From assembly GCA_902788975.1 (NCBI GenBank), contig CADAMI010000002.1, positions 1-51,967 on the forward strand: 51,967 nucleotides of DNA. Reading direction: 5' to 3'. The position numbers and the translations under genes are program-made. Numbering within the stretch: the stretch's first letter is position 1; the number at the start of each line of letters is the position of its first letter. This document shows positions 37,930-42,214 of the stretch, one piece after another. This DNA is from an uncultured Erysipelotrichaceae bacterium. Its GTDB lineage: Bacteria; Bacillota_I; Bacilli_A; RF39; UBA660. The notes beneath the pieces are model-generated. The model was given only the letters and a program-made list of their open reading frames with translations. It did not search any database and was not told where the DNA came from.

Positions 37930-39342
37930 ATGAATTTACCTAATATGTTAGATGCTAAAAAGAGAACTAAAGAAGAGTCTAAAATATTATATGATGATTA
38001 TAATATTAATGAAATAAATGATCTTGGTAAAGATAAAAAATATCTTATATTAACATATGGATGCCAGATGAATGTTCATGATAGTGAATATATATCTGGT
38101 ATTATGGAAGATATAGGATATACCAAAACAGAAGATATGAATAAGGCTGATGTTATAATTGTTAATACTTGTGCGATAAGAGAAAATGCTCACAATAAAG
38201 CTGAAGGTATGCTTGGTAGAATTAAACATCTAAAAGAAACTAAAGAAGACATAATTGTAATATTCTGTGGATGTATGGCTCAAGAAGAAGGGCTTGTTAA
38301 TAAGATAAAAGATTATAAATGGATTGATATAATATGCGGAACTCATAATTATCATAAAATACCAGAATATTTATATGAGTATATGGATAAAGGGAAAGTA
38401 TGTGAAGTTTATAGCATAGAAGGTAATGTTATTGAAAATTTACCAGTTATAAGAGATTCTAAATATACAGCTTGGGTAAATATTCAATATGGATGTGATA
38501 AATTCTGTACTTATTGTATAGTTCCATATACAAGAGGAAAACAAAGAAGTAGAAAAAGTGAAGATATTATAGATGAAGTGAGAGAACTTTATAATAATGG
38601 TTATCAAGAAGTAACATTACTTGGACAAAATGTTAATGCTTATGGAAAAGACTTTAATAATGATTACGATTTTGCTGATTTATTAGGTGAAGTTAGTCAG
38701 ACAGGAATACCACGTATTAGATTTGTAACTAGTCATCCATGGGATTTTACAGATAAGATGGTTGAAGTTATTAGTAAATGTGATAATATTATGCCATATA
38801 TTCATCTTCCTATTCAATCTGGATCTGATCGTATTCTTAAACTAATGGGAAGAAAATATACCATAAAAGAATACTTAGAAATAGTAAGAAAACTTAGAGA
38901 AAAGATTCCTAATGTAAGTATTACAACCGATATTATTGTTGGCTTTCCAGGAGAAACTGAAGAAGATTTTCAAAAGACTTTAGATATTGTTAATCAAGTT
39001 AAATATGACTTGGCGTATACATTTATTTTTAGTCCAAGAGAGGGAACACCAGCTGCTAAAATGGAAGATAATACTCCGATGGAAGAAAAAAAAGAAAGAC
39101 TAGCCAGACTTAATGAACTAATTAATAAATATGCTTTGGAATCTAATCAGAAGATGTTAAATAAAACATATGATGTTTTAATACTTGGAGAATCAGATAA
39201 GGATGATAAGTATATGGGATATACCGATAATATGAAATTAGTTAATGTTAAATGTGATAAAGAATTAGTTGGTAAAATTATTCCCGTTAAGATTACAGGA
39301 GTTAAGACTTGGAGCTTAGATGGTGAAGTAAATGATAAATAG
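37930..39342 (+). CDS. miaB: tRNA methylthiotransferase MiaB
   Basis: TYGCQMNVHDSE, NTCAIRENA, radical SAM CDKFCTYC, TRAM domain; start at ATG 37930. Confidence 0.96.
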   Translation: MNLPNMLDAKKRTKEESKILYDDYNINEINDLGKDKKYLILTYGCQMNVHDSEYISGIMEDIGYTKTEDMNKADVIIVNTCAIRENAHNKAEGMLGRIKHLKETKEDIIVIFCGCMAQEEGLVNKIKDYKWIDIICGTHNYHKIPEYLYEYMDKGKVCEVYSIEGNVIENLPVIRDSKYTAWVNIQYGCDKFCTYCIVPYTRGKQRSRKSEDIIDEVRELYNNGYQEVTLLGQNVNAYGKDFNNDYDFADLLGEVSQTGIPRIRFVTSHPWDFTDKMVEVISKCDNIMPYIHLPIQSGSDRILKLMGRKYTIKEYLEIVRKLREKIPNVSITTDIIVGFPGETEEDFQKTLDIVNQVKYDLAYTFIFSPREGTPAAKMEDNTPMEEKKERLARLNELINKYALESNQKMLNKTYDVLILGESDKDDKYMGYTDNMKLVNVKCDKELVGKIIPVKITGVKTWSLDGEVNDK

Positions 39343-39661
39343 TAGTTTAGAAGAATTATTTAATACAATAGAAAATTCAACTTTATATAAAGAGTATTTA
39401 AAAATGAAAGATATTTTAAGTAAAGATAAGGAAATTAAATTATTGATTGATGAAATTAAAGAATTAGAAAAACAAGCTACTTATTTAGAAAATATCGGAG
39501 ATAATAAATATAAAGATATTGATGAAGAAATAAAAAGAAAAGCTGATGTATTAAATAATAAACAAGTATATCAAGAATATTTAAATAAGATGGAAGAATT
39601 TAATAATGAATTAGCTATTTCATCTAAAATGATAGAGAAATATGTTGAAGAAAAGGTTTAA
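39332..39661 (+). CDS. YlbF/YmcA (RicA-like) family protein
   Basis: Helical 109-aa protein overlapping miaB as in the Bacillus miaB-ymcA operon. Confidence 0.7.
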   Translation: MINSSLEELFNTIENSTLYKEYLKMKDILSKDKEIKLLIDEIKELEKQATYLENIGDNKYKDIDEEIKRKADVLNNKQVYQEYLNKMEEFNNELAISSKMIEKYVEEKV

Positions 39662-39679
39662 TGATTTAAATCTTTTTTT

Positions 39680-39746
39680 GTTAACTATATGTTAATACAT
39701 TTGTTTGTGATTATTATTGACATATGTAGTATTTATTTGTTATAAT
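39680..39746 (+). promoter_or_regulatory. Repeated element copy 5 fused to promoter of LPD3-like gene
   Basis: GTTAACTATATGTTAATACATTTGTTTGTGATTATTA-TTGACA(39717-39722), 18 nt, TGT-TATAAT(39741-39746); abuts terminator 39651-39679. Confidence 0.85.
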
Positions 39747-39756
39747 TAATATTAGA

Positions 39757-40452
39757 ATGGCTGGTGAACATATGGACTATGAACTAAAATGTGGTTATGA
39801 TTATTTAGAAATTTTCTTTTCAGTTAGAGAAGAAAGATTAGAATATTTAAATAATAATTACAAATATCAAGATATATTGTTTAGGCAAAATAAAGGTAAT
39901 ATTCCTGTTAAAAGTGAATTGTTAAATATATATGAAAATGATAGAGAAATATTTGATAGTGTTATAGGGACTTTTTGCAACATAAGGCTTGTAAGTAATT
40001 GTTTATATGAATTTAATATTGCTGATATATATAAATTAAAGATTAACGAAATAAAGAAAATTGCAAAAGAAATTTTTAACAGATATAATGCTACTAATAT
40101 ATTTTTTAATGATGGAAATAAAATCTTTATTAATAAAACTGGTATAGATGAAGTAATCACAAAAATTTATGAAAGTAGAGAGCAAAGAAAATATTTAATT
40201 CAGCATTTAATTATAATAGCAAATATGTGTAATATAGTGGAACATGGCATATTAGTAAATCAAGCATTAGAATTTAAAGGTAGAGACAAGTACAATAATT
40301 GGAATTATTATCTTGATGTAGTTAATATAACTGGTGAATTATACATTTTAGTATATGATGTCGTGTCAATGACAAATGGCGAAAATCATTATAGAGTACA
40401 AAAAATAGAAAAAATAAAAAAACAGAGATTTCCACTGGGAGTACAAAAATAG
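39757..40452 (+). CDS. Protein with C-terminal LPD3-like (BECR-fold) predicted RNase domain
   Basis: DGNKIFINKTGIDE...NIVEHG.LV...KGR...WNYY...V.I.GE.Y...DV....NGENHY pattern recalled as LPD3-like; needs HMM confirmation. Confidence 0.6.
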   Translation: MAGEHMDYELKCGYDYLEIFFSVREERLEYLNNNYKYQDILFRQNKGNIPVKSELLNIYENDREIFDSVIGTFCNIRLVSNCLYEFNIADIYKLKINEIKKIAKEIFNRYNATNIFFNDGNKIFINKTGIDEVITKIYESREQRKYLIQHLIIIANMCNIVEHGILVNQALEFKGRDKYNNWNYYLDVVNITGELYILVYDVVSMTNGENHYRVQKIEKIKKQRFPLGVQK

Positions 40453-40483
40453 CACCTTACCAGTTTCCAAAATCTCTGTTCTT
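40414..40483 (-). ncRNA. Convergent hairpin sRNA overlapping the 3' end of the LPD3-like gene
   Basis: Minus promoter TTGACT(40518-40513)-17-TATATT(40495-40490) with extended TG; 11-bp closing stem 40421-40431/40470-40480, inner stems that need G-U pairs on the minus strand, U tail. Confidence 0.65.
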
Positions 40484-40599
40484 GGTTATAATATAGCATA
40501 ATTAAATAAGAAAGTCAATGCTTAAAAATGAAATCATAATAGTCAAAAATGAATATATAAAAGATAATATAAATGCTGATAGGCTAGAAAAGATTTATG

Positions 40600-40645
40600 A
40601 AAAAAGAACCCAAGTACGAATATAACTTCGTAGTTGGATTCATCT
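40600..40645 (-). ncRNA. Second convergent hairpin sRNA unit (orphan)
   Basis: Minus promoter TTGACA(40680-40675)-17-CATATT(40657-40652) with extended TG; hairpin 40606-40641 plus U run; overlaps the stop of 35-codon ORF 40518..40625. Confidence 0.45.
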
Positions 40646-40766
40646 ATGTTCAATATGTCATAATCTAATATAAATGTCAATTATGATATATCTAATAATA
40701 GTAATATGCAAGAAAAAGAAAAAAAATACTTAAAAATAGTTTATAATAATTATATGAGGTGATTTA

Positions 40767-41447
40767 ATGAAGGTAATTACTAATATGTTATTTAAGAAAC
40801 AAGATCTTAAATATCGAGAATTTACGGCTAAATCAATACCTAATATAAGTATAGATAAGATTATTGGAGTACGTATTCCGGGTATTAGAGTATTAGCTAA
40901 AGAAATAAAAGATTGTGAATATATAGATGAATTTCTAAATGAATTACCTCATGGGTATCAGGAAGAGAATTTGTTACATGGAATAATACTTAGTTATTAT
41001 AAAGATATTGATTTATTACTTAAGAAATTAGATATATTCTTAAAGTATACAGATAATTGGGCAGTAACAGATATTATTAGTCCTAAGATATTTAAAAAGT
41101 ATCCGGATAAAGTATATAAATATATTGTTAAATGGGTAAATAGTAAAGATGAATATAAAATTAGATTTGGGGTAGTTAGTTTATTACAATTTTATTTAGA
41201 TGATAATTATAATAAAAATATTTTATGGTTAGTTAAAAATATTAAAAGTGAATCATATTATGTCAAGATGGCAATTGCTTGGTTTTATTCTTTTGCTTTG
41301 ATAAAACAATATGATGATACGATTATATTATTTCAGGATAAATGTTTAGATAAATGGATTCATAATAAGAGCATTCAGAAAGCAATAGAGAGTTATAGAA
41401 TTAGTGATGATAAAAAAGAATATTTAAAAAGTTTAAAAATAAAGTAG
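40767..41447 (+). CDS. DNA alkylation repair protein (AlkD-like HEAT fold)
   Basis: GVRIP, DNWAVTD, YYVKMAIAW, KAIESYRI. Confidence 0.88.
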   Translation: MKVITNMLFKKQDLKYREFTAKSIPNISIDKIIGVRIPGIRVLAKEIKDCEYIDEFLNELPHGYQEENLLHGIILSYYKDIDLLLKKLDIFLKYTDNWAVTDIISPKIFKKYPDKVYKYIVKWVNSKDEYKIRFGVVSLLQFYLDDNYNKNILWLVKNIKSESYYVKMAIAWFYSFALIKQYDDTIILFQDKCLDKWIHNKSIQKAIESYRISDDKKEYLKSLKIK

Positions 41448-41455
41448 GTGATATT

Positions 41456-42214
41456 ATGCCAGGATTTGTTAGCCATACAGTAATGGCTAGAGATGTATAT
41501 AATACTATAGATAAAAATAAAGTTGATATAGATTATATGATTTCTTATTCTTTAGGGGGAGATTTATGTAAATATGCTAAATGTCGATATGATAGTCATC
41601 ATAAAGATATGGATAAGTTTATTTATACGATGGCTGATTATATCAAAGAAAATAATTTAGTTAATAATAAAGAAATTATGGGAGTTTTATATGGACATAT
41701 CTGTCATTATGTTATGGATTGTATGATTCATCCATTAGTGAGAATGATCGATAAGGTTTGTATTAAGAATAAACATAATCATACTTTAATTGAAGAATAT
41801 TATGATAGTTATTTAGTTAAAGAAAGATATGAAATAGAAAAGAAAGAATACTTAAAGAAAAGAGTACTTAAGGCTAAAGCTAATAGAAAAATATCTAAGA
41901 TGTTAGATTATGTTTATACGAAAGTATATAATACTCAAAAAGTATCTATTTATTATAATCTTAATTTATTATTATATAGATTATTAAGTAAGATATATAT
42001 TATATTTAGTAAAGGATTTATTGAAAAGATAATTGGATTAAATAGGTTTTTAGATAATAATAAAAGTGTTGATATATTTAATGAGGATAATAAAATTATG
42101 TATAAAGATTATTTAAGAAATGAGTGTTCTAATAGTTTAATGTCTTTATATGAAGAAAGTATAGATGTAGCTAGGGAATATATTAAAAATATAAATAATT
42201 ATCTGAATATTTGA
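41456..42214 (+). CDS. Zinc-dependent phospholipase C family protein
   Basis: MP...SH, GHICHYVMD..IHP, H..IE metal motifs. Confidence 0.8.
   Translation: MPGFVSHTVMARDVYNTIDKNKVDIDYMISYSLGGDLCKYAKCRYDSHHKDMDKFIYTMADYIKENNLVNNKEIMGVLYGHICHYVMDCMIHPLVRMIDKVCIKNKHNHTLIEEYYDSYLVKERYEIEKKEYLKKRVLKAKANRKISKMLDYVYTKVYNTQKVSIYYNLNLLLYRLLSKIYIIFSKGFIEKIIGLNRFLDNNKSVDIFNEDNKIMYKDYLRNECSNSLMSLYEESIDVAREYIKNINNYLNI

Follow-up and report, generated by a model that had tools for sequence, protein, structure and literature searches.

A conserved promoter-hairpin-terminator unit is found on the strand opposite the end of LPD3 coding sequence and is inherited together with it. We have studied this unit in a 51,967-nucleotide (nt) stretch of DNA from an uncultured Erysipelotrichaceae bacterium (contig CADAMI010000002.1; this whole stretch is called the window below), where it faces the gene of a stand-alone LPD3 protein. 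The RNA family linked to LPD3, which is unmatched in Rfam, is best read as a new family of cis-antisense small RNAs. We give a probability of about 0.5 to the RNA repressing LPD3 by cis-antisense action, which in phages would extend to the entire polyvalent message. The identity of LPD3, the conserved layout of the unit, its covariation, the strand bias of its fold and its linkage to LPD3 are shown below; that the RNA is transcribed, that it exerts repression and that LPD3 is toxic are inferences.

The antisense unit in the window

The earlier note on this DNA had described a near-consensus minus-strand promoter, a hairpin and a T-run across the last codons of the LPD3 gene, and all three were found in that arrangement (Table 1). 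On the minus strand, the -35 box TTGACT lies at 40518-40513 and the -10 box TATATT at 40495-40490, with a spacer of 17 nt, and the hairpin begins about 5 nt after the -10 box. The hairpin, at 40421-40480(-), is composed of P1, an A-rich internal loop, P2 and an apical hairpin, P3, which are followed by a U-tract; the hairpin arms AACAGAGATTT are located at 40480-40470(-) and 40431-40421. The T-run past the hairpin is present on the minus strand only. The stop codon of LPD3 (40450-40452) falls inside the predicted RNA, and the promoter-like sites of the LPD3 gene and of the RNA, both near-consensus, face each other.

The minus-strand RNA folded with -26.7 kcal/mol (z -4.97), a value that none of 200 shuffles equalled, whereas the plus-strand fold reached -16.9 kcal/mol and lost the inner helix. 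The RNA strand has 5 G-U pairs among 25 and its complement 0 among 16, in agreement with the earlier claim that the inner helix works only with G-U pairs on the minus strand. A covariance model (R1), built from 16 RNA copies and holding no promoter columns, matched the window element with 63.9 bits (E 1.5e-9), and found it as a single copy in the source genome at E<0.1. Neither a search of window positions 39000-41500 (E<=10) nor one of 16 related loci (E<=1) assigned the element to an Rfam 15 family.

We have then considered whether chance could account for such a unit. The pattern TTGAC[AT]-17-TAnnnT, followed by 5 nt and by 40-95 nt ending in a run of at least five Ts, was combined with a fold of at most -20 kcal/mol. 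Across both strands of the window it matched once, at the RNA site, and 42,574 nt of unrelated loci gave 0 matches. This result bears on a reading in which there is no RNA gene at all, the hairpin being an LPD3 terminator or an mRNA structure and the hexamers a product of chance in AT-rich DNA. Such a reading would be in line with the abundance of promoter-like sites in the window (23 found versus 16.4 expected in shuffles) and with the fact that, among the sequencing runs containing the stretch, none is on record as RNA. Nevertheless, we regard it as highly improbable: the combined pattern occurs only once in the window and not in the control, a U-tract is seen solely on the minus strand, and both the G-U pairs and the fold energy favour the minus strand. 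The related loci, presented below, point in the same direction.

Run X20, which is labelled metatranscriptomic and flagged as probably DNA, holds one 214-nt contig identical to window positions 40291-40504. This contig runs from the 3' end of LPD3 through the RNA into its promoter, of which it includes a part. Since contigs show neither strand nor ends, it says nothing on the small RNA. Of the four runs compared with the stretch, X24 yielded nothing. We have also considered programmed frameshifting at the A-run and rejected it, because there is no spacer between the A-run and the hairpin, the stability favours the other strand, and the promoter and U-tract fit the minus strand.

Recurrence with LPD3, reading frames and covariation

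The element was followed across 21 distinct LPD3 loci, namely the window, two from same-genus genomes, six from species-representative genomes, seven from the order, four from IMG/VR viral contigs and one from the phylum. The order survey covered 401 genomes and gave a match in eight, including the window's own, and the phylum survey covered 401 genomes, with PF18798 in two, again including the window's own. The loci are not all independent: L014 and L016 come from one metagenome-assembled genome, and L023 and L026 have near-identical RNAs. A further copy, L012, the sole return of a metagenome scan, was left out of the locus count; as it is 99% identical to the window, it is uninformative on covariation.

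A regular expression (promoter, 40-95 nt, T-run) located the element opposite LPD3 in 14 loci. The -35 box was 69-110 nt beyond the end of the protein match, and 188 nt beyond it in L025, which has a degenerate LPD3 of 84 amino acids (aa). R1 recovered the element (22 copies, E<=1e-3) in 19 of the 21 distinct loci, on the strand facing LPD3 and where the domain ends, the additions being all four viral contigs, the fourth copy in L024 and the copy in L026. We regard this comparison as decisive: the convergent element is real and conserved, and it travels with LPD3. L040, from another bacterial family, gave a weak match (12.9 bits, E 0.25), which is the best in that locus, immediately follows the LPD3 domain on the strand facing it and has TTGACA upstream. 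L018 has kept a promoter-like stretch, and the hairpin is absent from it.

The promoter was shared as well. The 16 copies found by regular expression have TTGAC[AT]-17-TAnnnT 5 nt before the RNA, and the same layout and place were seen in 10 of the 11 copies found by R1 alone, where the hexamers are kept and the spacers differ. Conservation of the hexamers and of the 17-nt spacing alongside divergent spacers, extending to non-coding DNA, argues against chance hexamers and for a promoter.

Where the reading frames are concerned, the LPD3 frame stops inside the RNA in seven loci, the window included, and in one locus, L022, internal stops mark a pseudogene. The frame remains open past the RNA in 12 loci: eight of these frames reach the ends of their loci, the frame of L015 continues for 2,886 nt, and those of L020, L023 and L017 continue for 162-399 nt. 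Open frames spanning the RNA measured 1,749, 1,814 and 2,599 aa in the genome search and 1,843 aa in L015. In the coding strand, the A-run from which the terminator U-tract originates encodes lysines, and the promoter is translated in polyvalent genes as a linker peptide, for example DNIPQSNNNV. The earlier note had named, as one outcome that would overturn its proposal, a hairpin serving only as a terminator with no minus-strand transcript. A terminator-only reading fails for a hairpin that sits mid-gene in such long open frames, and the same 12 loci count against the absence of an RNA gene. Phage-type polyvalent genes, together with viral contigs of IMG/VR, form the usual context of the element. 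The usual home of the LPD3-RNA pair is phage polyvalent protein genes, and the window copy is a stand-alone insertion.

The copies support a structure that is maintained on the RNA strand. In the model-fitted alignment, which leans towards structure, 91.8% of the cells pair, versus 45-53% with slid partners, and 16 of the 18 modelled pairs have changed on both sides; none of 500 shuffles reached the observed values. The unfitted MAFFT alignment gave 15 of 18 pairs changed on both sides. The apical hairpin is present in the minimum-energy fold of each of the 22 copies, and the RNA-strand fold is the more stable one in 19 of the 22, by a mean of 7.6 kcal/mol. Across copies, G-U pairs amount to 87 of 607 on the RNA strand versus 27 of 518 on the complement. 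The GGAAA reported earlier on both sides of the internal loop is there in the window, but it is not conserved in relatives.

Some searches and loci stood apart from this picture. A tblastn search of phage and plasmid record collections with the window protein returned none at E<=1e-3. The distant polyvalent protein P0133 matched phage records via its methylase/helicase part only, not via LPD3, and viral-contig scans with the distant stand-alone LPD3 proteins P0087 and P0130 gave no relatives. The RNA is therefore known from this AT-rich clade of Bacilli and gut phages. A match to RF03531, a Clostridioides difficile small RNA inside a helicase gene, was seen at L013:1033-1119(-), in a 693-aa open reading frame (ORF) upstream of the LPD3 gene. 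With 43.7 bits versus a gathering cut-off of 65.2, and about 2 kb away in another gene, it was set aside as unrelated; this match is probably conserved coding sequence.

Three loci involve clustered regularly interspaced short palindromic repeats (CRISPR). At L023:453-1427, a 26-repeat array contains, exactly between two of its repeats, a 903-nt piece of a polyvalent gene that comprises the C-terminal half of LPD3 and the antisense RNA; L026 is a related case. At L018:3001-3300, a CRISPR repeat directly adjoins a C-terminal LPD3 fragment that lacks the hairpin. Such pieces next to CRISPR repeats could be assembly chimeras formed via phage-matching spacers, or real insertions.

The LPD3 protein and its locus

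The window protein matched PF18798 above its cut-off, in agreement with the earlier recognition of LPD3 (32.1 bits versus 27, E 1.5e-7, residues 98-212), and the genome-level profile search again placed it above the cut-off (33.4 bits). It had no other Pfam match at E<=1, and no match to a ToxN-like or a BECR family (RelE/ParE, PBECR1-5). Its homologues are 33-52% identical to it. With a profile of seven close homologues, 177 cluster representatives were retrieved at E<=0.001, some of them stand-alone (about 150-300 aa) and others polyvalent proteins (1,000-3,100 aa). A Pfam scan of six long polyvalent relatives found LPD3 beside LPD38, a pol-beta nucleotidyltransferase, ART-PolyVal and DnaJ, and the atlas clusters contained fusions of LPD3 with portal and Mu-F-like head proteins. 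The LPDs were described as 40 domains of elusive function, LPD3 included (Iyer et al. 2017, PMC5512222). In the portion of that article available to us, LPD3 is not among the seven potentially enzymatic LPDs named, PBECR is treated separately, and LPD38 is confined to phage-type polyvalent proteins.

We have modelled residues 43-231 with AlphaFold2, using 48 sequences (mean predicted local distance difference test score 92.6, predicted template modelling score 0.88). The modelled fold has helices leading into a four-stranded antiparallel sheet. Against BFVD, the model matched 14 proteins at E<=0.001 (best 9e-8), mostly named LPD3 or polyvalent proteins. Phages of Proteobacteria and Campylobacterota were seen in the atlas and BFVD matches. 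The best match among solved structures was CdiA-CT Kp342 (6cp9_A; Z 5.2, root-mean-square deviation 3.6, 99 aligned residues), and others were BrnT (Z 4.6), MqsR (Z 4.0), CdiA-CT EC3006 (Z 3.7), Colicin D (Z 3.5), RelE (Z 3.5) and, with Z about 3, ParE, XendoU and the colicin E5 domain. BECR entries were many among the 50 solved-structure rows, all with Z below 8, a range which according to the guide of the tool may mean only a common arrangement. An earlier, poorer model had given Z 5.5 for 6cp9_A and Z 4.9 for RelE.

Foldseek returned nothing from the Protein Data Bank (PDB) at E<=0.001 for either model, and the 48-sequence profile matched none of the PDB sequences at E<=10. The polar residues E132, K136, Q143 and K174 are conserved in LPD3, as are H150, R176, H211 and R213 in close relatives, and such residues would be compatible with RNA cleavage. 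The proposal in the earlier note of a BECR-fold RNase was therefore retained as a lead only, given that all Z values are below 8 and Foldseek found nothing significant; the models weakly suggest a BECR-like RNase, which makes it a reasonable lead. PHROGs gave weak matches of unknown function only.

The window is AT-rich DNA, and the genome from which it comes is incomplete (1.23 Mb, 70.6% complete). Sequencing runs that contain the stretch carry the label of bovine or sheep gut metagenomes. The LPD3 gene is preceded by miaB and a ymcA/ylbF-like gene (Com_YlbF, E 7e-10) and followed by a DNA-alkylation-repair gene and a PLC-like gene. The ORF listing contains no other plus-strand ORF of at least 40 aa between ymcA and the downstream gene, so that the stated lack of an adjacent protein antitoxin held. 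The LPD3 ATG is located about 10 nt past the -10 box of the plus-strand promoter-like site, and translation may start instead at the ATG at 39772, judging from the GGTGA before it.

Table 1. Features of the LPD3 locus in the window
Feature	Position	Strand	Basis
Stand-alone LPD3 protein gene, 231 aa	39757-40452	+	ORF listing, Pfam PF18798
Pfam LPD3 domain, residues 98-212	40048-40392	+	Pfam
Promoter-like site of LPD3 gene, TTGACA-18-TATAAT with TG	39717-39746	+	12/12 in consensus scan; pattern match only
Promoter-like site of antisense small RNA, TTGACT-17-TATATT with TG	40490-40518	-	10/12 in consensus scan
Predicted small RNA, about 69 nt	40416-40484	-	Fold on each strand, RNA model R1; ends predicted
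Accessory insertion between ymcA/ylbF-like and DNA-alkylation-repair genes, about 1.1 kb	39662-40766		Same-genus comparison

Because same-genus genomes differ after ymcA, we interpret the stretch around the LPD3 gene as an accessory insertion in a variable spot. In genome G003, ymcA is directly adjoined by the alkylation-repair gene, in G011 the PLC-like gene comes next after ymcA, and three further genomes of the genus have different DNA there. The spot after the ymcA-like gene (L035-L039) thus shows four arrangements among five genomes of the genus.

The minus strand has a second promoter-like site at 40680-40652 (TTGACA-17-CATATT with TG), followed by a simple 36-nt hairpin at 40641-40606 (-16.8 kcal/mol, z -4.70) and a T-run. 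This second unit (40600-40680), which R1 did not match at E up to 1, may be a decayed RNA unit or a separate small transcript. We do not take the 45-aa ORF on the minus strand at 40543-40680 for a gene, since a 1-nt indel breaks it in the near-identical L012.

Possible modes of action and relation to known systems

The repression that we propose would proceed as follows. The stand-alone LPD3 gene of the window would derive from phage polyvalent-protein genes, from which the RNA gene would have been carried along. An RNA of about 65-80 nt would be transcribed from its own sigma-70-type promoter opposite LPD3 and would end at its own hairpin and U-tract. As it is read from the opposite strand, the RNA would be fully complementary to the LPD3 coding end or, in polyvalent genes, to the linker that follows LPD3. 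It would pair with the complementary hairpin of the LPD3 message, which as a duplex would be less stable or less well translated. In this way, a probably harmful RNA-targeting domain would be held down in the carrier cell. That the antisense position is kept even inside reading frames supports that complementarity matters.

Several observations weigh against this mode of action, besides the record of sequencing runs mentioned above. A target at the 3' end or mid-gene is less direct for blocking translation than one at the 5' end. The BECR resemblance of LPD3 is weak in the models (Z <=5.2), and PADLOC gave 0 matches to defence families. Others concern the internal loop between P1 and P2. Its unpaired 5' A-A is A in 20 and 21 of the 22 copies, and on its 3' side 16 of 20 copies have G and 18 of 20 have a purine. 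In the window, this conservation is not explained by coding, because the loop follows the stop codon, and complementarity alone does not require conserved unpaired nucleotides in a loop.

Such a loop would suit an RNA that serves as a ligand of the LPD3 domain, either as a type III-like neutraliser and substrate mimic or as a partner or cofactor, its antisense position reflecting co-inheritance. The unpaired A-A and G-purine are conserved while the stems covary, and the best solved-structure matches of LPD3, with weak scores, are RNA-cleaving BECR toxins. We consider this reading possible but rather unlikely, since the RNA gene lies inside coding sequence in 12 loci, which mere co-inheritance would not need and which speaks for a part played by complementarity or by the exact position, and the window lacks the type III hallmarks of same-strand upstream tandem repeats and a ToxN-like toxin.

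The copies that stray from the common arrangement also tell against simple cis-antisense repression. At L024:1022-1516, four tandem RNA units lie downstream of a divergent stand-alone LPD3 gene. The lack of tandem repeats noted earlier is therefore true of the window, which has a single unit, and does not extend to this relative. All four L024 units carry promoters of their own, and they share P2 and the loop sequence but differ in P1 and P3, a pattern that again would favour binding by the protein. An RNA-led search of 151 family genomes gave matches in four, including the window's own, with five new copies. The only one beside an intact LPD3 domain was in L045 (E 2e-69), whereas those of L042, L043, L044 and L046 are without an intact LPD3 gene. 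The L046 RNA lies beside a C-terminal LPD3 remnant with stops. L043 has two units of different RNA subtypes and, in the second, a C-terminal LPD3 remnant with stops about 120 nt from the RNA. In L042 and L044 no LPD3 was recognisable at E<=1e-3, and in L042 the promoter-coded peptide NSTTTNQNSQI is repeated four times.

Orphan and tandem copies fit a role of the RNA on its own equally well, and RNA copies that outlast the decay of LPD3 are a further point for the RNA as a ligand. They are also what would be expected if the RNA acted in trans and independently of LPD3, as a phage regulator or as an immunity RNA silencing the polyvalent gene of an incoming phage. Units without intact LPD3, the arrays of L024, L042 and L043, the chromosomal stand-alone copy as an insertion in a variable spot, and the usual context of phage-type polyvalent genes and viral contigs are all compatible with action in trans. 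Yet in 19 of 21 loci the RNA keeps to one place, where the LPD3 domain ends, and intact stand-alone LPD3 genes have retained the RNA, which renders an LPD3-independent role quite unlikely. No trans target came to light, no search aimed at one having been made.

The toxin-antitoxin interpretation of the earlier note is plausible, and antisense, protein-binding and trans roles could also be combined. In one such combination, LPD3 would be a BECR-like RNase and the RNA would both silence its message and bind the protein via the internal loop, as a type I/type III hybrid; orphan copies and arrays would guard against incoming matching phages, and the promoter and hairpin would be regulatory DNA translated as a linker. 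We hold this full combination to be unlikely.

Cis-antisense repression, the reading that we favour, has a close parallel in lambda OOP, an RNA of about 77 nt with its own promoter and hairpin terminator, which is complementary to the 3' end of cII and acts via cleavage of the RNA duplex. Likewise, the LPD3-linked element would be a short RNA that is driven and terminated by sequences of its own, converges on a phage gene and is the complement of the 3' end of that gene. In contrast to OOP, to which it has no sequence or Rfam relation, its partner is LPD3, it often lies in the middle of a polyvalent gene, and its loop nucleotides are conserved.

The Gram-positive type I pairs txpA/RatA and bsrG/SR4 have RNA antitoxins that overlap the 3' end of the toxin gene, and their toxins are small hydrophobic peptides. 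They resemble the window locus in having convergent promoters, an RNA over the 3' end of a (here putative) toxin mRNA and no protein antitoxin. The complementarity between RNA and mRNA that characterises type I systems is predicted from the layout of 19 of the 21 LPD3 loci. On the other hand, the putative toxin is not a small hydrophobic peptide: LPD3 is a 231-aa soluble protein of phage origin with an alpha/beta domain. SymE/SymR and RalR/RalA are type I pairs with nuclease-like toxins, SymR overlapping the 5' end of its target and RalA acting in trans. They share with the LPD3 pair an RNA antitoxin coupled to a non-membrane, nucleic-acid-directed protein, but differ in the position or mode of the RNA, and the protein families are unrelated.

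In type III systems (ToxIN, CptIN, TenpIN), the repeats precede the toxin gene on its own strand, and the toxin excises them. A structured RNA might bind and neutralise an endoribonuclease here too, and L024 does have its four tandem units. However, the LPD3-linked units are antisense, with their own promoter and terminator, no ToxN-like Pfam match was obtained, and the window has one convergent downstream unit in place of same-strand upstream tandem repeats.

The window protein is a member of the LPD3 domains of polyvalent proteins, for which the available portion of the defining article mentions no associated RNA (PMC5512222). We have found no such RNA described in the literature on LPD3, PF18798 or polyvalent proteins with antisense RNA, a search to which subscription journals and the supplements of Iyer et al. 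were outside scope. Apparent mentions of LPD3 in PMC10910872 and in the CRISPRi-ART preprint proved to be LPD39 and LPD38.

A conserved RNA partner offers the first concrete handle on the function of LPD3. It also places a small RNA gene, with its promoter and terminator, inside the frame of a giant phage protein, so that one DNA serves as both peptide linker and RNA gene. If the RNA restrains a toxic, RNase-like domain, RNA antitoxin logic would extend to phage-injected effector domains, and the tolerance of carriers towards LPD3 genes would be explained.

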